Positions 2,762 to 13,247 of a DNA stretch of 15,159 nucleotides are shown here, piece by piece. The notes under the pieces are model-generated. The model made no database searches. It worked only from the letters and a program-made list of their open reading frames with translations, and had not been told where the DNA came from. This DNA is from a virus (Duplodnaviria > Heunggongvirae > Uroviricota > Caudoviricetes). Where the stretch lies: the IMG/VR virus record IMGVR_UViG_2711768072_000011; one strand, 5' to 3'. Both the position numbers and the translations under genes were made by a program. How positions within the stretch are numbered: the stretch's first letter is position 1; every line of letters starts with the position of its first letter.

Positions 2762-2873
2762 TTATACCTCTGAATCAATATCAACCTGGTGGTGAGCAAT
2801 GGTTTCAACCATGTACCGGATGTGTTCTGCCATGCGCTCCTGAAACTCAACATCGTCATCAAACGCACGGGTA
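2762..2873 (-). pseudogene. gam: gam remnant: only the 3' end (about 35 C-terminal codons) of the Gam gene
   Basis: Reverse-complement translation from the stop at 2762-2764 gives ...[36 protein letters not shown], the Gam C-terminus. Homology stops near 2868-2874, where IS2 sequence begins, and there is no start codon. Confidence 0.8.
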
Positions 2874-3566
2874 TGGGCGCTGCTTCGCAGACAGGCAGAA
2901 CTTGATGGTATGCCTGCGATCAATGCCAAACGTGTTTACCGGATCATGCGCCAGAATGCGCTGTTGCTTGAGCGAAAACCTGCTGTACCGCCATCGAAAC
3001 GGGCACATACAGGCAGAGTGGCTGTGAAAGAAAGTAATCAGCGATGGTGCTCTGACGGGTTCGAGTTCCGCTGTGATAACGGAGAAAAACTGCGAGTCAC
3101 GTTCGCGCTGGACTGCTGTGACCGTGAGGCACTGCACTGGGCGGTCACTACGGGCGGCTTCAACAGTGAAACAGTACAGGACGTCATGCTGGGAGCGGTG
3201 GAACGCCGCTTCGGCAACGAGCTTCCGGCGTCTCCAGTAGAGTGGCTGACGGATAATGGTTCATGCTACCGGGCTAATGAAACACGGCAGTTTGCCCGGA
3301 TGTTGGGGCTTGAACCGAAGAGCACGGCGGTGCGGAGTCCGGAGAGTAACGGCATAGCAGAGAGCTTCGTGAAAACGATAAAGCGTGACTACATCAGTGT
3401 CATGCCCAAACCAGACGGGTTAACGGCAGCAAAGAACCTTGCAGAGGCGTTCGAGCATTATAACGAATGGCATCCGCATAGTGCACTGGGTTATCGCTCG
3501 CCACGGGAATATCTACGGCAGCAAGCCAGTAATGGGTTAAGTGATAACAGGTGTCTGGAAATATAG
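2868..3566 (+). pseudogene. insD: Truncated IS2 transposase InsD (OrfB), N-terminal part missing
   Basis: The frame is continuous from the gam/IS2 junction through the listed 2910..3566 ORF. The Met at 2910 is internal to InsD and not a real start. The expected upstream insC and frameshift window are absent. Confidence 0.8.
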
Positions 3567-3577
3567 GGGCAAATCCA
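2868..3577 (+). mobile_element. Partial IS2 (right-hand ~0.7 kb: 3' part of insD plus right terminal repeat); left half including insC is missing
   Basis: Plus-strand translation from the junction reads ...[47 protein letters not shown]... to ...[11 protein letters not shown], the C-terminal ~230 residues of IS2 InsD. The sequence then ends in ...TAGGGGCAAATCCA, which I recall as the IS2 right terminus, directly followed by emrE-internal sequence. Confidence 0.85.
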
Positions 3578-3821
3578 ATGGCCATCTGTTGGTACAATTA
3601 TTTGTTATTGTGCATCATTCTGGTTATTAGCTCAGACGCTGGCTTATATTCCTACAGGGATTGCTTATGCTATCTGGTCAGGAGTCGGTATTGTCCTGAT
3701 TAGCTTACTGTCATGGGGATTTTTCGGCCAACGGCTGGACCTGCCAGCCATTATAGGCATGATGTTGATTTGTGCCGGTGTGTTGATTATTAATTTATTG
3801 TCACGAAGCACACCACATTAA
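3578..3821 (+). pseudogene. emrE: emrE 3' fragment (small multidrug resistance transporter), first ~33 codons replaced by IS2
   Basis: The frame reads WPSVGTIICYCASFWLLAQTLAYIPTGIAYAIWSGVGIVLISLLSWGFFGQRLDLPAIIGMMLICAGVLIINLLSRSTPH*, which is EmrE from about residue 31 to the C-terminus. There is no start codon, and the IS2 end lies immediately upstream. Confidence 0.85.
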
Positions 3822-3851
3822 AATAATTTGTTTCTAAACGACTAAAATATG

Positions 3852-3892
3852 GAGGCTCTTATATTTATATGAGCCTCGTTTTATGCTTTTTG
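3852..3892 (+). terminator. Putative rho-independent terminator downstream of emrE
   Basis: Inverted repeat GAGGCTC (3853-3859) / GAGCCTC (3871-3877) with an AT-rich loop, followed by GTTTTATGCTTTTTG. Confidence 0.5.
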
Positions 3893-4076
3893 TTAATGTC
3901 TTTATTTTTTATGTATTCTTTTGTGCTTTCAAGATTATGGCGTAAGAAAATTGCAATACGATTATTGTTGTATATTCAAGATAATGTGACCTTAATTGTC
4001 TTTTTAAATAAAAAATAAACAAAAAATTATATCCCACCACTAAGGTTTATAAAAGCATACGTTAGCAGGTGTCACC

Positions 4077-5603
4077 ATGAAAAAAGCCATAGCATATATG
4101 CGATTTTCATCACCAGGTCAGATGTCTGGCGACTCATTAAACCGACAGAGAAGACTTATTGCTGAATGGTTAAAGGTAAATAGTGATTATTATCTTGATA
4201 CCATAACATATGAAGATTTAGGATTAAGTGCATTCAAAGGAAAGCATGCACAATCAGGAGCTTTTTCGGAATTTTTAGATGCTATAGAGCATGGTTATAT
4301 ATTGCCAGGAACTACATTGTTAGTTGAAAGTCTGGACAGACTTTCAAGAGAAAAAGTCGGTGAAGCGATTGAACGTCTGAAATTGATTTTGAATCACGGT
4401 ATTGATGTTATAACTCTTTGCGACAATACAGTCTATAATATTGACTCTTTGAATGAGCCATATTCATTAATAAAAGCCATACTTATAGCACAAAGGGCAA
4501 ATGAAGAAAGCGAGATAAAGTCAAGTCGGGTTAAATTATCATGGAAGAAAAAACGGCAGGATGCACTGGAATCAGGTACGATTATGACGGCGTCTTGTCC
4601 GAGATGGCTCTCCTTAGATGACAAAAGAACGGCTTTTGTTCCAGACCCCGACAGGGTGAAAACTATTGAGCTAATTTTTAAACTCAGGATGGAAAGGCGC
4701 TCATTGAATGCAATAGCCAAGTATTTAAATGATCATGCTGTAAAGAATTTCTCAGGAAAAGAAAGTGCATGGGGACCTTCTGTAATTGAAAAATTATTAG
4801 CGAATAAAGCTCTGATAGGTATATGCGTACCTTCATATCGTGCAAGAGGGAAAGGGATAAGTGAAATCGCTGGCTATTATCCCAGAGTCATATCAGATGA
4901 TTTGTTTTACGCTGTACAGGAAATTCGGTTGGTACCTTTTGGTATTAGCAATAGTAGCAAGAATCCTATGCTAATAAATCTACTTCGAACAGTTATGAAG
5001 TGTGAGGCTTGTGGTAATACCATGATTGTTCATGCGGCATCTGGAAGTTTGCATGGCTATTATGTTTGTCCGATGAGAAGATTACATCGATGTGACAGGC
5101 CATCAATAAAAAGAGATTTGGTTGATTATAATATCATTAATGAATTGCTTTTTAATTGTAGCAAAATTCAACCAGTTGAAAACAAGAAAGATGCTAATGA
5201 AACTTTAGAGTTAAAAATTATTGAGCTTCAGATGAAAATTAATAATTTAATCGTTGCATTGTCTGTCGCGCCTGAAGTTACCGCTATAGCAGAGAAAATA
5301 AGACTATTAGATAAGGAATTACGAAGGGCTTCGGTATCATTGAAAACTTTGAAGAGTAAAGGTGTAAATTCATTCAGTGATTTTTATGCTATTGACTTAA
5401 CCAGTAAAAATGGACGAGAGTTATGCCGTACACTTGCCTATAAAACATTCGAAAAAATCATAATTAATACGGATAATAAAACCTGTGATATCTATTTTAT
5501 GAATGGCATTGTTTTTAAACACTATCCTTTAATGAAAGTAATATCCGCCCAGCAGGCGATAAGTGCTCTCAAATATATGGTTGATGGTGAGATTTATTTC
5601 TAA
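4077..5603 (+). CDS. ybcK: Large serine recombinase (resolvase/invertase-type catalytic domain, recombinase domain and zinc ribbon), 508 aa
   Basis: N-terminus AYMRFSSPGQ...LLVESLDRLSREK resembles the serine-recombinase catalytic motifs. A C-terminal Cys cluster (CEACGNT...YYVCPMRRLHRC) fits a zinc ribbon. Length and sequence fit DLP12 YbcK. AT-rich codon usage. Confidence 0.85.
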   Translation: MKKAIAYMRFSSPGQMSGDSLNRQRRLIAEWLKVNSDYYLDTITYEDLGLSAFKGKHAQSGAFSEFLDAIEHGYILPGTTLLVESLDRLSREKVGEAIERLKLILNHGIDVITLCDNTVYNIDSLNEPYSLIKAILIAQRANEESEIKSSRVKLSWKKKRQDALESGTIMTASCPRWLSLDDKRTAFVPDPDRVKTIELIFKLRMERRSLNAIAKYLNDHAVKNFSGKESAWGPSVIEKLLANKALIGICVPSYRARGKGISEIAGYYPRVISDDLFYAVQEIRLVPFGISNSSKNPMLINLLRTVMKCEACGNTMIVHAASGSLHGYYVCPMRRLHRCDRPSIKRDLVDYNIINELLFNCSKIQPVENKKDANETLELKIIELQMKINNLIVALSVAPEVTAIAEKIRLLDKELRRASVSLKTLKSKGVNSFSDFYAIDLTSKNGRELCRTLAYKTFEKIIINTDNKTCDIYFMNGIVFKHYPLMKVISAQQAISALKYMVDGEIYF

Positions 5604-6067
5604 ATAATGATCTCGGATTTTAAGTTATGCTATGGTGATAAAGTGCAAGACAGAATTAATTATCTTTGACGAAACTTAATGGGTAATTACTTTGTTTGCT
5701 CCCACAAGCGAGTTTTGTACGGCTGTATTGGGGTAGTAAATGAGCTATACAATCTTAATCATTTGTTAGGTGAGAACTCTTGGTCGCAGATTCAAATACT
5801 GAAAATACGTGACAAATTATTATGAGCAAAATGGTGTATGTCACGTATTTTGAATGGTAGGTTAAAAAATAACACCGACTTTCGTAGGTATTACTAATAA
5901 TAAAGCAGAGTTTTTAGATAGTATCAATGTGCTTTGTGTATATTGTGGCAAATAATTGGGTTGGGGGTACAATTGTGATTGCTTTTGCATGAACATTGCG
6001 CCTTTATGCATAATGAGATAAAGGAATATCAAATAAAATAACGATAGGTCATAACAAAGAGGTTTTT

Positions 6068-6619
6068 ATGAAAACACTTATCGTTTCAACTGTATTGGCA
6101 TTCATAACATTTTCTGCGCAGGCTGCAGCATTTCAGGTCACTAGTAATGAAATAAAAACAGGAGAGCAACTTACAACGTCTCATGTCTTTTCTGGATTTG
6201 GGTGTGAAGGTGGTAATACATCGCCCTCATTAACCTGGTCTGGTGTTCCTGAAGGTACCAAAAGCTTTGCCGTAACTGTATATGATCCAGATGCACCTAC
6301 AGGCAGTGGTTGGTGGCATTGGACTGTTGTTAATATTCCAGCAACAGTAACATATTTGCCCGTTGATGCAGGGAGACGTGATGGAACAAAACTGCCGACT
6401 GGTGCTGTTCAAGGCCGAAATGATTTTGGCTATGCTGGGTTTGGTGGCGCATGTCCTCCTAAAGGAGATAAACCACATCATTACCAGTTTAAAGTATGGG
6501 CTCTAAAAACTGAAAAGATTCCTGTAGATTCTAACTCCAGCGGAGCGTTAGTTGGTTATATGCTTAATGCTAATAAAATCGCAACCGCTGAGATAACACC
6601 AGTTTATGAGATAAAGTAG
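6068..6619 (+). CDS. ybcL: Periplasmic PEBP/RKIP-family (UPF0098) protein with signal peptide, 183 aa
   Basis: N-terminal signal peptide (MKTLIVSTVLAFITFSAQA) and conserved PEBP-like segments (DPDAP...WWHW...GACPPKGDKPHHYQF). Matches DLP12 YbcL in length and sequence as I recall it. Confidence 0.85.
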   Translation: MKTLIVSTVLAFITFSAQAAAFQVTSNEIKTGEQLTTSHVFSGFGCEGGNTSPSLTWSGVPEGTKSFAVTVYDPDAPTGSGWWHWTVVNIPATVTYLPVDAGRRDGTKLPTGAVQGRNDFGYAGFGGACPPKGDKPHHYQFKVWALKTEKIPVDSNSSGALVGYMLNANKIATAEITPVYEIK

Positions 6620-6628
6620 GGTGAGAGT

Positions 6629-7426
6629 ATGCTGGCAAGAGGTAAGACTAACTTAAAGATCGAAGAAATACGGATGCATAAACATCATGAGATTCATAGG
6701 GTTAAGCCTCTTATGCCAGCTTTGTGTCGTATCCGTCAGGGAAAGAAAGTTATCAATTGGGAGACGCATACTTTAACTGTTGATAATAATCAAATAATAT
6801 TATTTCCTTGTGGTTATGAATTTTATATTGAGAATTATCCTGAAGCAGGGCTTTATCTTGCAGAAATGCTTTACTTACCCATTGATTTAATTGAGAGTTT
6901 CCAAAAACTTTATACGGTAACTGATCAAATACGTAACAAAACAAGTTTCTTTTTACCTCAGAATCCTGAGTTAATATATTGTTGGGAGCAACTAAAAACA
7001 TCTGTTTCCCGAGGCTTCTCAACTAAAATTCAGGAGCACTTAGCAATGGGCGTTCTACTTTCGTTAGGAGTGAATCATGTTAATCATTTACTTTTATCAT
7101 ATAGTAAACAATCATTGATAAGTCGTTGTTATAACCTGCTGCTATCCGAACCCGGCACAAAATGGACAGCAAACAAGGTTGCTCGATATCTCTACATTTC
7201 TGTTTCTACATTACATCGCCGTCTAGCAAGCGAGGGGGTAAGTTTCCAAAGTATACTGGACGATGTGAGGTTAAATAATGCGTTGTCTGCTATACAAACG
7301 ACGGTAAAACCTATAAGCGAGATTGCCAGAGAAAATGGTTATAAGTGTCCTTCTCGTTTTACTGAAAGATTTCATAATCGTTTTAATATAACACCAAGAG
7401 AGATAAGAAAAGCTTCCAGAGAGTAA
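6629..7426 (+). CDS. ybcM: AraC/XylS-family transcriptional regulator, 265 aa
   Basis: C-terminal helix-turn-helix region typical of AraC family ([21 protein letters not shown]...[31 protein letters not shown]). AG-rich ribosome-binding site upstream. Position and length fit DLP12 ybcM. Confidence 0.8.
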
Positions 7427-7542
7427 AAGTGTTTTAAGAAGGAGCAATTCTATCGATTTTGATTTTGGGAAATCAACACGGCATAATTATGTCACCGGAG
7501 CCTGAACAACTCCGGTGACTTCTGCGCTAAACGGGGACGTTT

Positions 7543-7644
7543 ATGCGCACATACAATCCAAACTATCTTCTCCTTTCACAGATGCAGAAATGCACCTGCA
7601 ATTCTTTGCATCTAGCGTTTGACCTCTGCGGAGGTGAAGCGTGA
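7543..7644 (+). CDS. ylcH: Small ORF, 33 aa (ylcH-like), with its stop overlapping the ybcN start
   Basis: ATG at 7543 to TGA at 7642-7644 encodes [33 protein letters not shown]. Position corresponds to the small ylcH gene of DLP12. No clear ribosome-binding site, so low confidence. Confidence 0.3.
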
Positions 7645-8096
7645 ACCTCCCACAAGACGGCATCAAATTACATCGCGGCAACTTCACCGCTATCGGCCAG
7701 CAGATCCAGCCTTATCTGGAGGAAGGCAAATGCTTTCGCATGGTGCTTAAACCGTGGCGCGAGAGACGCAGTCTTTCCCAGAATGCACTCAGCCACATGT
7801 GGTACAGCGAAATCAGTGAATACCTCATCAGCAAGGGTAAAACGTTCGCTACTCCAGCTTGGGTAAAAGATGCTCTCAAACACACATATCTCGGTTATGA
7901 AACCAAAGACCTGGTTGATGTCGTAACCGGTGATATCACCACTATCCAGTCGTTACGCCATACCTCCGATCTTGATACCGGAGAGATGTATGTCTTCCTG
8001 TGTAAGGTTGAAGCCTGGGCGATGAATATTGGTTGCCACCTGACTATTCCACAGAGCTGCGAGTTTCAGCTGCTGCGCGACAAGCAGGAGGCGTAA
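7641..8096 (+). CDS. ybcN: NinB/Orf-family recombination protein (YbcN, DNA base-flipping protein), 151 aa, GTG start
   Basis: GTG start preceded by GGAGGTG. Contains the NinB-like RxRSLSQN motif. Length and sequence fit DLP12 YbcN. First gene of the nin-like block. Confidence 0.8.
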
Positions 8097-9130: not shown

Positions 9131-9514
9131 ATGCGTGATATTCAGATGGTTCTTGAGCGTTGGGGAGCGTGGGCGGCTAATAATCATGAAGATGTGACCT
9201 GGTCGTCCATTGCCGCCGGTTTTAAGGGATTAATTCCTTCAAAAGTAAAATCTCGCCCGCAATGTTGTGACGATGACGCGATGATCATTTGCGGGTGCAT
9301 GGCCCGTCTGAAAAAGAACAACAGCGATTTGCACGATTTATTAGTAGATTATTATGTAGTCGGTATGACATTCATGTCACTGGCAGGTAAGCATTGCTGC
9401 TCTGATGGTTATATCGGGAAAAGGTTACAGAAGGCTGAGGGCATAATTGAAGGGATGTTAATGGCATTAGATATCCGGTTAGAGATGGATATCGTTGTTA
9501 ATAACTCTAATTAA
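9131..9514 (+). CDS. quuD: Late-gene antiterminator Q (phage 82/21-type), 127 aa
   Basis: Translation [36 protein letters not shown]... fits the Q82-family antiterminator QuuD. GGAG lies 8 nt upstream of the ATG at 9131; the upstream ATG at 9116 is a less likely start. Confidence 0.8.
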
Positions 9515-9539
9515 TATGCCAATTGTTTACTAAAAATTA

Positions 9540-9566
9540 TTAAAAATGGGGCGTTGAGACGCCCCC
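9540..9566 (-). terminator. Putative intrinsic terminator acting on the minus strand (candidate nmpC terminator)
   Basis: Hairpin GGGGCGT/ACGCCCC (9548-9565) with a 4-nt loop. On the minus strand it is followed by a T-rich run (complement of CTAAAAATTATTAAAAAT). Confidence 0.45.
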
Positions 9567-9654
9567 AAAAATAAAGGGTAATATATAACAGAAGGTTTAT
9601 ATAGTTAGAAGCAAGGTTGTGCTTCTAAAGGAAGTGGCTTGAGGGAGCCACTTA

Positions 9655-9695
9655 TATGTTGGGGAGGCAACGCCTCCCGCAACATATCTTTTTCG
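9655..9695 (+). terminator. Putative plus-strand intrinsic terminator downstream of Q (tR'-like), within the late promoter-proximal region
   Basis: GC-rich hairpin GGGAGGC-AAC-GCCTCCC (9662-9678), extended by ATGTTG/CAACAT arms, followed by ATCTTTTTCG. It lies just past the nmpC stop, so it may also act bidirectionally. Confidence 0.55.
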
Positions 9696-9703
9696 TAATC
9701 AGA

Positions 9704-10801
9704 TTAGAACTGGTAAACCAGACCTACAGCAACGATGTCATCAGTGCTTACACCGAGTGCTTTAGTGAAGTCATTTTTGTCAAGCAGGTTGATTTTGTAA
9801 TCAACGAAAGTAGACATATTTTTGTTGAAGTAATAGGTTGCACCTACATCAACATATTTGACTAAGTCCTGATCGCCCCATACTCCAAGATCTTTACCTT
9901 TAGATTGCAGGTAAGCAACGGACGGACGCAGACCGAAATCGAACTGATATTGTGCAACAGCTTCGAAGTTTTGGGCTTTATTAGCAACGAAGTGATCAGC
10001 AAATACAGTCATATTCTGGGTTTCAGAATAGGTAGTGGCCAGGTAAATGTTGTTAGCGTCATATTTCAGACCTGCGGCCCAAACTTCTGCATTTTTACCG
10101 GAAGCAAATACTTCAGGAAGAACTTTCCCTGCATTAACTTGAGTGTCGGTACGATCAGATTTCGCATAAGTTGCACCGATACCGAATCCTTCGTATTCAT
10201 AGGTAGCAGAGAAACCGAAGCCATCACCGTTACCTTCAGTGTAGTTATCGAAATCGCTACGATCGTTTTTGCCTTGGTACTGAGCAGCAAAGTTCAGACC
10301 ATCAACCAGACCAAAGAAGTCGTTGTTACGATAGGTTGCAACACCAGTGGTGCGACCAGTCATGAACACATCTGTTTGGGTCCAGGTATCGCCACCGAAT
10401 TCTGGCAGAACGTCAGTCCACGCACCGATGTCGTATGCTACACCGTAGTTACGGCCGTAATCGATTGAGCCGTAGTCACCGAATTTCAGGCCTGCAAATG
10501 CAAGACGGGTTTTGTCTTTGGAGGAACCTTGAGATTCAGCGCGGTTGCCTTTGAATTCATATTCCCACTGACCGAAACCAGTCAGTTGATCGTTGATTTG
10601 GGTTTCACCTTTGAAGCCAAGACGGGCATAAGTAGTATCACCATCATCTGCATCATTAGAGGAGAAGTAGTGCTTGGCATTAACTTTCCCGTACAGATCC
10701 AGCTTGTTACTGTCTTTATTATAAATTTCAGCTGCCTGAGCAGACATCGCCATCAGTACTGATGCAGCTACAGCAGAAATTGCCACTGTTAATTTTTTCA
10801 T
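9704..10801 (-). CDS. nmpC: OmpC/PhoE-family general porin (NmpC / Lc-type), 365 aa, apparently intact
   Basis: Signal peptide [23 protein letters not shown] followed by porin motifs, ending in the C-terminal ...VGLVYQF beta-signal. Full-length ORF with no IS interruption, located antisense between Q and the lysis genes. Confidence 0.9.
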
Positions 10802-11389
10802 CGTGAGCCCTTTTTTTTGAACTATTATTAAAAAATGATGTCACTGCGCGATAAATATTCATCTAATCAATGTGATTATTTCAAGATGTAAGTTTTGGTT
10901 TCTCGTTTGATTTGTGAAGTAGATCTCTATTTTTATCTGAACTTTTTTCTATCGAATCCTATTCATAGCTCTTGGCTGAATAAAAATAAATCTATTAGCC
11001 AATTTATATTAACGGCTGTTATTTATAAGTGCTCTATAATTTGAAGGTTCAATTTAAATCGGCTAAAAATAACACTGGAAATTATTTGTTGGTTATTTGT
11101 TGAGGTTTTCTTATGTATTTGTGGTGGTGTTTTGAACACTCGGTAGCATTCTCATAAATATCATTCAGTGGTTTACGTACGTAAAAAATTGGTTATGCTG
11201 TTAAGAGTGGTTACTTCGTCACACAGCTTAACCCGCCGTCGAGCTGGTTTTTCCATTTTTTGAGTCTCGATATTAGCTGATAACTCAATACCTGAGTTAT
11301 TCACTGACTCCGAGTCTGTTACGTTTCTGCTTTTTTGCGATACGTTGTATTCCCTCAATTTACACCCGCTTTGTCTGCGAGGTGGGGTT

Positions 11390-12591: not shown

Positions 12592-12885
12592 TTATTGTGA
12601 GCAATACACACGCGCTTCCAGCGGAGTATAAATGCCTAAAGTAATAAAACCGAGCAATCCATTTACGAATGTTTGCTGGGTTTCTGTTTTAACAACATTT
12701 TCTGCGCCGCCACAAATTTTGGCTGCATCAACAGTTTTCTCCTGTCCAATTCCCGAAACGAAGAAGTGATGGGTGATGGTTTCCTTTGGTGTTACTGCTG
12801 TCGGTTTGTTTCCAACAGTAAACGTCTGTTGAGCACATCCTGTAATAAGCATTGCCAGAGCGGCAGAAAACAACATTTTTTTCAT
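12592..12885 (-). CDS. borD: Bor-family outer-membrane lipoprotein, 97 aa
   Basis: From the Met at 12885: MKKMLFSAALAMLITGCAQQ..., with lipobox LITGC. Matches lambda Bor/DLP12 BorD. Antisense to the late operon. Confidence 0.85.
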   Translation of the reverse strand: MKKMLFSAALAMLITGCAQQTFTVGNKPTAVTPKETITHHFFVSGIGQEKTVDAAKICGGAENVVKTETQQTFVNGLLGFITLGIYTPLEARVYCSQ

Positions 12886-13247
12886 CTTATTATCCTGCAT
12901 TGTTAAAAACGGCAGAATCCTATGTGACAACAATTAAACGATAGTTAAATGGATTGATGAAAATTAAAACTATATAGGTGTACGCTCAGACTATTGGAGG
13001 AAGTTGGGGACACTCAGAATCCTGTGGAATGAAATAAACCGGTCTATCCGTCTATTACCCTTTTAGCTGCGCTGTATCGTCGCCGTATTCCCGCATTAAC
13101 CATGACCGTAGCCCGACGGGGAATTCCTTCTGCGTGAGTGTGCGGGAATAATCAAAAACGATGCACACCGGGTTTTACTGTGCTGACAGACGCAGGGTTA
13201 CCCTCATAGTCGCTTTTCCGGTGCGATGGTGGAAGAAACCGGGATGT

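Follow-up and report, generated by a model that had tools for sequence, protein, structure and literature searches.

The AT-rich accessory slot of a DLP12-type lambdoid prophage and its large serine recombinase YbcK

Large serine recombinases such as TnpX of Tn4451 and TndX of Tn5397 move small cargo elements, and the recombinase gene is located at one end of the element. In this work, we have analysed ybcK, a gene for a large serine recombinase lying in the middle of a lambdoid prophage, together with the AT-rich block of accessory genes around it. The whole stretch of DNA analysed (hereafter the window) is 15,159 nucleotides long and is the virus record IMGVR_UViG_2711768072_000011 of IMG/VR (Caudoviricetes). 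The block in it is the known emrE-ylcJ-ybcK-ybcL-ybcM accessory region of the DLP12-type lambdoid prophages of Escherichia coli.

This region has already been annotated and partly characterised. The genes ybcL and ybcM form an operon (ybcLM), which is bound and autoregulated by YbcM and has been linked to oxidative-stress survival, with an 8-fold lower H2O2 survival of the ybcM mutant (PMC8464067). A crystal structure of YbcL exists, and the variant from uropathogenic E. coli (UPEC) suppresses neutrophil migration (PMC4810123 and references therein), an activity that is decided by a single residue (PMC4810123). For ybcK, a Rho-dependent terminator has been located in the untranslated leader (PMC4150792). 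An earlier reading of the window (the sequence-only reading) had taken the function of ybcK, ybcL and ybcM together as not established. In the light of the above studies this is outdated for ybcLM, and the leader terminator of ybcK has been studied too.

The closest described locus is the DLP12 prophage of E. coli K-12 (b0543–b0546 and b4733), to which positions 3578–7700 of the window are 99.8% identical at the nucleotide level, with 8 mismatches and 1 gap. The genes, their order (emrE, ylcJ, ybcK, ybcL, ybcM, ylcH, ybcN) and their spacing are the same in both, and YbcL is identical. On the other hand, K-12 DLP12 has an IS3 element within renD and an intact emrE, while in the window an IS3-family fragment has eliminated the gam-to-ren stretch as well as the emrE 5' end. 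That is, the window is not the K-12 copy itself.

Contents and distribution of the slot

Overall, we hold it to be quite probable that the block is a mosaic moron slot between ren and ybcN built of independent modules, and that YbcK is a functional recombinase working at the phage level with its targets elsewhere. The slot is a patchwork of AT-rich modules, horizontally acquired and separately exchangeable, in DLP12/phage-82-like lambdoid phages. The first module is the efflux pump gene emrE, the second ylcJ-ybcK, i.e., a leader with a small open reading frame (ORF) and an intact large serine recombinase, and the third a hypervariable position, which in the lineage of the window holds a 268-bp spacer and the ybcLM operon. 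The latter is cargo of benefit to the host, kept even after the remaining prophage decays. YbcK is neither the prophage integrase nor a partner of ybcLM. It would normally be kept nearly silent by Rho and have its DNA targets outside the block, and its ancestors may have come from other prophages, as integrases or as mobile recombinase genes. The mosaic, the independence of its modules, the autonomy of ybcLM and the intact, selected state of ybcK are shown by the data below, whereas the activity and role of YbcK are inferred.

The block differs clearly from its surroundings in composition. Its GC content is 0.363 for positions 3578–7457 (0.360 for 3822–7520), compared with 0.479 for the rest of the window, and the difference is significant when 200-bp bins are compared (19 inside and 54 outside the block, Mann-Whitney p=8e-8). 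The GC content at third codon positions is 0.26–0.29 in ybcK, ybcL and ybcM, compared with 0.59 in ybcN and rusA. The sequence-only reading had described AT-rich cargo with a different codon usage inside a lambdoid prophage, and both points are borne out. Further AT-rich patches with a GC content of 0.29–0.40 have been observed at 9200–9800, 10800–11200 and 12800–13000; they flank an nmpC-like porin gene (9704–10801, minus strand) and sit downstream of the lysis genes, and therefore AT-rich cargo is not peculiar to this block.

The slot is a mosaic. Homology to other E. coli prophages breaks at 3823/3824, 5644/5645, 5912/5913 and 7457/7458. In a census of 85 ybcK-bearing prophage loci, in which the stretch from ybcK to the ylcH leader was compared, at least nine alternative contents were found after ybcK. 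ybcLM occupies the position at 33 loci, a BD-FAE alpha/beta hydrolase at 11 and a near-empty state of 281 bp at 7; other contents are a P22AR-C fragment with an ORF of 118, 260, 168 or 79 aa or with BstA, and a pair of small ORFs of 63 and 105 aa. BstA, the 309-aa cargo ORF after ybcK in the IMG/VR prophage L169 (PADLOC 3.6e-121), is an alternative cargo of other prophages only. All variants regain homology at 7457/7458, while their left joints differ (5644, ~5676, or past the P22AR-C ORF) and the cargo types are nested mosaics. These varying joints and nested mosaics point to ordinary lambdoid recombination and not to cassette exchange at one site.

The slot between ren and ninB has also been inspected in the related phages PhiR30_1, PhiR26_1 and PhiR5_1, where unrelated cargo is present without ybcK: an acyltransferase plus a lipoprotein, PD-lambda-1, or Rha. 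PD-lambda-1 lies between ren and ybcN in PhiR26_1 (locus L017, 2191–3693). In showing alternative contents between core genes, a near-empty state and a GC content of 0.36 against 0.48, the locus behaves as a moron slot. The ren-ninB position is thus a hotspot for cargo and defence genes, at which ybcLM, BstA, PD-lambda-1 and several unknown ORFs alternate. Since known defence and cargo genes alternate there, new functions carried by phages may be encoded by the unknown ORFs; those of 118, 168, 260 and 105 aa, for which neither Pfam nor PADLOC gave a match, could provide such functions.

The modules assort independently among genomes. Of 5426 complete E. coli genomes, 1424 carry ybcK and 3258 carry ybcLM (672 at no less than 95% identity and 2586 at 90–95%), the whole block is present in 669, and ybcK adjoins ybcLM in ~670. 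emrE, ylcJ and ybcK are contiguous in 1398 genomes, i.e., in every genome with a full-length ybcK (1398/1398). The ~90%-identity copy of ybcLM (~2586 genomes) lies in the order fliE-emrE-ybcL-ybcM-porin-yedK, with ybcK absent. Small pieces of ren, ylcH and quuD and of the porin region persist in it, while all core phage genes and ybcK have been lost (L188, 4912–8355, from an E. coli Nissle derivative; also L002). These remains mark the fliE-linked copy as what is left of a DLP12-like prophage after its reduction to the cargo genes. In decayed prophages, ybcK is truncated or lost.

The chromosomal copy also serves to define the extent of the slot. It begins in the 3' end of ren, 76 bp before emrE, so the cargo slot runs from ren to 7457 with emrE included. 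The sequence-only reading had drawn the block from just after emrE to the stem-loop at 7491–7519. The AT-rich block as such stands, while both edges have to be moved: the slot begins at the ren stop, and the variable DNA ends at 7457/7458. The stem-loop is indeed present, with a perfect 10-bp inverted repeat and a 9-nt loop, and it forms part of the conserved ylcH-ybcN leader instead of the right edge. In gene content, the three genes reported for the block are there, while a fourth annotated gene, ylcJ (3869–4018), had been missed and the truncation of emrE had not been seen.

ybcLM is autonomous. The published YbcM binding site from chromatin immunoprecipitation with exonuclease treatment (ChIP-exo), at 570015–570048 of NC_000913.2, maps to 5967–6000 of the window, 68–101 bp upstream of ybcL. 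The numbering was confirmed with the ucpA site, which lies upstream of ucpA under that numbering only. The YbcM site is a single and very strong one, with a signal-to-noise ratio of 357, and is bound by RNA polymerase (PMC8464067). It falls inside the ybcLM module (5913–7457), which also exists without ybcK, and therefore ybcLM is self-contained. Promoter-like hexamers were found upstream of ybcL at 5945–5973 in a promoter scan whose counts overall are not above those of shuffled sequence.

The assignment of YbcL to the PEBP family and of YbcM to the AraC family, made earlier from the sequence, agrees with the Pfam matches (Table 1). YbcL further matches the NCBIfam equivalog NF007330 with 400 bits (cutoff 277) and TIGR00481 with 189 bits, and its N-terminus reads as a signal-like sequence, MKTLIVSTVLAFITFSAQAAA. 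The gap between the ybcL stop and the ybcM start, previously given as 10 bp, is as close as had been said and measures 9 nt. The ratios of non-synonymous to synonymous substitution rates (dN/dS) are 0.09 for ybcL and 0.12 for ybcM, which indicates purifying selection on both genes. Compared with the ybcLM of K-12 and UPEC, the YbcM operator and the promoter are equally distant from ybcL. The window YbcL, like that of K-12, has V at precursor residue 99, whereas the copies of B2 strains and of the UPEC type have T. Position 99 is what we take to be the residue that decides the neutrophil-suppressing activity.

YbcK, its relatives and rival explanations

YbcK is an intact large serine recombinase. 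Pfam finds the Resolvase (5.5e-19, residues 4–161), Recombinase (2.6e-14) and Zn_ribbon_recom (4.6e-8) domains, and the protein matches PHROG 95 'integrase' with 4.5e-119. The residues R9, S11, Q15, D87, R88 and R91, together with C309, C312, C331 and C339, are invariant over 31 homologues down to 30% identity. A PDB search with the single YbcK sequence gave nothing, and matches appeared only with the profile of the 31 homologues, which finds SPbeta SprA (3e-19) and the A118 integrase (3e-16). In the AlphaFold2 model (predicted local distance difference test score, pLDDT, 79.6), long helices are seen at residues 346–426, and the best Foldseek matches are the SPbeta, PhiC31, Bxb1 and A118 integrases, with E values from 6e-18 to 1e-10. 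The claim of the sequence-only reading that YbcK is a large serine recombinase is hence confirmed by domain profiles, and the predicted structure has the integrase fold; lack of the catalytic serine-recombinase fold had been named as a way to refute it. A DNA invertase of the Hin/Gin/Cin/Pin type (~190 aa) was also considered for YbcK and rejected, as the protein has 508 aa and the architecture of a large recombinase. No inverted repeats beyond chance bracket a neighbouring segment, and the PHROG 'DNA invertase' match covers the catalytic domain only.

Among the seven alleles compared, all have 508 codons without any frameshift, with dN/dS of 0.05–0.11 at synonymous divergence (dS) up to 0.17. 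These values indicate that ybcK is under purifying selection. The gene is carried by isolated viable lambdoid phages, namely PhiR34_1 (with the entire block), Perceval, 4A7 and Turner. The purifying selection, the presence in viable phages and the loss in the decayed remnant together make it most likely that YbcK works as a serine recombinase at the phage level, that it descends from prophage integrases and that its targets lie elsewhere.

As to what it acts on, the prophage's own integration is not a candidate. Prophages with near-identical ybcK are located at argU, icd or ybhC, each adjoining a tyrosine integrase, and therefore YbcK is not the prophage integrase. The gene has an internal position, with emrE on one side and the nin genes on the other in all cases, and the possibility was rejected. 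Around ybcK, no att-like repeats, invertible segment or conserved flanking motif were found. The direct or inverted repeats that enclose ybcK, ybcLM or the complete block amount to short chance-level matches, and the region upstream of the recombinase gene shows no conserved motif among 15 homologues. The earlier statement that no att site or invertible segment can be assigned to YbcK has thus held up against the repeat and upstream-motif searches.

Several observations weigh against a recombinase function of YbcK and against our picture of the slot. Recombination activity, a binding site or a rearrangement product of YbcK has not been seen, and the papers on ybcK that were consulted report no recombination assay. 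The 675 copies of the adjoining spacer are all intact and single-copy, and the left linkage of ybcK is never broken in 1398 genomes. The purifying selection could reflect a role other than recombination. Knockout and overexpression of ybcK altered sabinene tolerance in BL21 (PMC7181518), which hints at an effect at the level of the host. In addition, silencing of the block by H-NS is assumed from its AT-richness. The genome counts come from a set skewed to laboratory and outbreak strains and are not population frequencies. Moreover, ylcJ-ybcK may either have entered between emrE and ybcL or have been lost by the chromosomal remnant, and the junctions are marked by nothing more than an AATAAT microhomology.

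More distant relatives of YbcK (42–61% identity) occur in two settings. The first is the nin region of lambdoid prophages (Atlantibacter, Pantoea and metagenome contigs); at least the prophage of Pantoea carries a tyrosine integrase of its own. The second is behind tail-fibre genes at the prophage edge, adjoining the 3' end of ssrA in Atlantibacter and lepA in Erwinia, with similar cases in Yersinia and Ewingella; this position would fit an integrase. Those by ssrA or lepA at prophage ends and those in nin regions include relatives of 50–59% identity. In Atlantibacter, a prophage with genes for a Mu-like tail ends in a 59%-identical homologue (L009, 11530–12432); the 3' end of ssrA, the tmRNA gene, is ~540 bp away, and this is where the integrase of that prophage would be expected. 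When 25 Enterobacterales loci were mapped with marker proteins, about 8 could be classified, and the remainder, some of them on plasmids, are without the phage markers used. Relatives of 37–43% identity without the tested phage markers have been seen on the Pantoea plasmid pC3_2 (L029), on an Enterobacter ludwigii plasmid (L032) and at L035–L041. Considering such plasmids and marker-free chromosomal settings, the family is not confined to prophages. A scan of IMG/VR for ybcK yielded E. coli copies only and was used for the cargo census, not for distant contexts.

These contexts bear on the question whether YbcK-family genes are minimal selfish mobile units which hop between phages, with ylcJ-ybcK inserted between emrE and ybcL. 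Two Atlantibacter homologues, one behind Mu-like tail genes by ssrA and the other in a lambdoid nin region, have in common only the gene and 68 bp upstream, at 76% nucleotide identity. In locus L015 (and also L022), a 229-bp direct repeat with 83% identity (9623–9851 and 12609–12831) flanks a recombinase-KGG-DinI segment, as would be left by a site-specific insertion. The repeat is the 5' end of a DUF1367/NinB-like gene, truncated in the left copy and intact in the right one, so that the segment looks like an insertion into that gene. In the phage collection, a search for the matching 'empty site' returned only intact DUF1367 genes in unrelated flanks and was therefore uninformative. The Atlantibacter pair and the L015 duplication hint at mobility of the recombinase genes without proving it. 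Moreover, the ybcK-less emrE-ybcL junction resembles an empty site that AATAAT borders on either side, this microhomology being all that stands out there at ~90% background identity. On the other hand, ybcK is not surrounded by terminal inverted repeats or conserved end motifs, nor do the homologues share any, and within E. coli the gene is immobile, as all 1398 of 1398 copies adjoin emrE. The joints of the cargo after ybcK lie at varying positions, as in ordinary lambdoid mosaicism, and an identity of 76% leaves ample time for flanks to be reshuffled. We thus regard such selfish units as rather unlikely.

A related idea, to which we likewise give a low probability, is that YbcK stands for a distinct class of large serine recombinases within lambdoid phages that already have a tyrosine integrase. 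Members of this class would sit at the head of a hypervariable accessory/defence slot (the nin region) or behind tail-fibre genes, and would either move as minimal units of recombinase and cargo or give a second, conditional recombination pathway, e.g., alternative integration or cargo capture.

The sequence-only reading had suggested that ybcK, ybcL and ybcM may be the remnant of a single captured integrative element, or one accessory module. On such a view, YbcK would once have mobilised, or would still control, the PEBP/AraC pair. In its favour, the three genes adjoin one another, are read from one strand and have a similar AT content, and the entire block travels in the viable phage PhiR34_1. 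In addition, emrE and ybcLM are similarly diverged from the chromosomal copy (dS 0.23–0.38), so an ancestral full block with a later loss of ybcK is possible. The distribution data, however, largely refute this suggestion. ybcLM occurs without ybcK in ~2586 genomes, ybcK is followed by at least eight other contents and by cargo other than ybcLM in about half of its occurrences, and the two are adjacent in only ~670 of 5426 genomes. Outside this prophage lineage there is essentially no co-occurrence of the trio, an outcome that the sequence-only reading itself had named as a refutation; the trio together with the 268-bp spacer forms a single lineage of no less than 99% identity in 675 genomes. 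The promoter and operator of ybcLM lie inside its own module. No flanking direct or inverted repeats bound the block, and as a self-contained integrative element it was rejected, the AATAAT at the ybcK-less emrE-ybcL junction being a mere microhomology. A single module is therefore quite improbable, and the three genes should not be handled as one system.

It is also very improbable that ybcK is a functionless relic hitchhiking with emrE. This would agree with the lack of any recombination phenotype tied to ybcK, with its being held off by Rho-dependent termination, and with its truncation or loss in decayed prophages. A relic, however, would hardly show such low dN/dS (0.05–0.11) and neither frameshift nor length change in 7 alleles, while the neighbouring ylcJ is frameshifted in two variants, nor would the catalytic and zinc-binding residues stay invariant over 31 homologues down to 30% identity.

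Finally, that YbcK resembles an integron integrase capturing or exchanging downstream cassettes is hardly credible, since, although ybcK is constant with hypervariable DNA from 41 bp past its stop (at least nine contents including a defence gene) and the common right border at 7457/7458 carries the dyad TTGATTT...AAATCAA, the left joints differ between variants, the contents are nested mosaics and not discrete cassettes, no repeated att-like site or common motif of 30–50 bp is found at the cassette borders, and the ren-ninB slot is equally variable in phages without ybcK.

Features of the block and its flanks

The coordinates of the features are collected in Table 1.

Table 1 Features of the accessory slot and the adjoining sequences in the window.
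Feature	Position	Strand	Basis or remark
IS3-family (IS2-like) insertion sequence (IS) element, 3' fragment, 710 bp	2868–3577	+	99% match to IS3-family element in locus L001
emrE 3' remnant, small multidrug resistance (SMR) efflux pump gene, ~81/110 codons	3578–3822	+	aligns to emrE of loci L001–L005
ybcK leader, 27% GC	3823–4076	+	contains ylcJ
ylcJ, 49-aa hydrophobic small protein	3869–4018	+	Pfam YlcJ 6.6e-36
ybcK, intact large serine recombinase, integrase type, 508 aa	4077–5603	+	Pfam, PHROG, residues, fold
ybcK 3' flank common to all cargo variants	5604–5644	+	homology to L003, L004, L005 stops at 5644
268-bp spacer found only where ybcK and ybcLM are arranged as in DLP12	5645–5912	+	seen in 675/5426 genomes
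48-codon ORF	5679–5825	+	annotated in phage PhiR34_1, not K-12; no homologue in other loci
Hairpin/palindrome 13+24+13, perfect 13-bp stem	5802–5851		inverted-repeat search
ybcLM promoter region	5913–6067	+	homology to ybcK-less chromosomal copy starts at 5913
ybcL, periplasmic PEBP/Raf-kinase-inhibitor-like protein	6068–6619	+	Pfam PBP 3.2e-42
ybcM, AraC-family regulator, ybcLM autoregulator	6629–7426	+	Pfam HTH_18 9.5e-17, HTH_AraC 1.1e-6
Conserved nin-gene leader, not cargo	7458–7644	+	homology regained; phage 82 record X92588
Putative -35/-10 hexamers	7459–7487	+	promoter scan; phage 82 record X92588
Stem-loop, 'possible regulator-binding site'	7491–7519		phage 82 record X92588
ylcH	7543–7644	+	then ybcN
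ybcN (ninB-type)	7641–8096	+	follows ylcH

On the left side, the IS fragment stands in place of the gam-to-ren part of the prophage: at one end it adjoins an interior point of gam, and at the other it meets emrE at 3577/3578, near codon 30. IS3/IS2 transposase annotations underlie the matches to query positions 1–178. As a result, the window prophage lacks kil-cI-O-P-ren along with the emrE 5' end; with this deletion of the immunity and replication genes from kil to ren, it is defective. The genes exo (1294–1974) and bet (1971–2756) are intact on the minus strand. In its full-length form, emrE matches NCBIfam with 3.6e-72 and belongs to the PHROG category 'moron'.

In the leader of ybcK, ylcJ is frameshifted in two prophage variants and 69–88% identical in others, while the adjoining YbcK is 97–99% identical (loci L003, L004 and L008). 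ylcJ may accordingly be a weakly constrained leader ORF and not a conserved protein.

Beyond the 3' flank of ybcK, weak similarity extends to ~5676. The 268-bp spacer is found once in each of its 675 genomes and is no less than 99% identical in 672 of them. The palindrome in it folds as RNA with -18.9 kcal/mol (z=-3.2), and the stop codon of the 48-codon ORF falls in the hairpin loop; ORF and hairpin are both confined to the DLP12-type lineage. As an operator of YbcM, the palindrome was rejected, because the ChIP-exo site is 116 bp further downstream. It is the one notable dyad near ybcK and a weak candidate for a phage attachment site (attP): its outer 13-nt arms alone are symmetric, it belongs to one lineage and is never split, and inverted repeats that are perfect over 13 nt or more arose in 4 of 200 shuffles (p ~0.02).

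Over the whole window, the Rfam scan matched no family and the tRNA/tmRNA scan found none, and the counts of the promoter and terminator scans are not above those of shuffled sequence.

Comparison with known systems

YbcK is a well-conserved enzyme of the serine integrase type, in the best-studied bacterium, with no known substrate. If its sites are found, an old annotation question would be answered, and a Gram-negative large serine recombinase may become available for genome engineering.

Compared with TnpX and TndX and their elements, ylcJ-ybcK differs in that neither the ends of an element nor a circular form or a pattern of target duplication could be found for it. No close sequence relationship to them has been seen, though no test was aimed at one.

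The lambdoid moron hotspots (bor and lom of lambda, BstA, PD-lambda-1) resemble the slot. Common to both are a fixed position between core genes with varying content, a deviant composition and autonomous promoters, and known defence genes are present in the same slot of relatives. A difference is that no protein of the window matches a known defence family (PADLOC gave no match for YbcK, YbcL, YbcM, YlcJ or EmrE), the cargo being an efflux pump, a PEBP protein with its regulator, and a recombinase.

As for the enzyme itself, the closest systems are the large serine integrases (SPbeta SprA/YokA, A118/LI Int, PhiC31 Int, Bxb1 Int and TP901-1 Int). YbcK differs from them in lying mid-phage, in a phage already having a tyrosine integrase, and in that no attP-like site, recombination directionality factor or recombination product has been identified for it. 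It also has an extra beta-rich region at the C-terminus (residues 458–507, PHROG 2371), and its identity to these integrases is only ~14–22% over the Foldseek alignments. On the other hand, they are its top profile and fold matches, the catalytic Ser/Arg and the four Cys are conserved in YbcK, and the order of domains is the same, i.e., a catalytic domain, the long helix E, a recombinase domain, and a zinc ribbon with a coiled-coil insertion.

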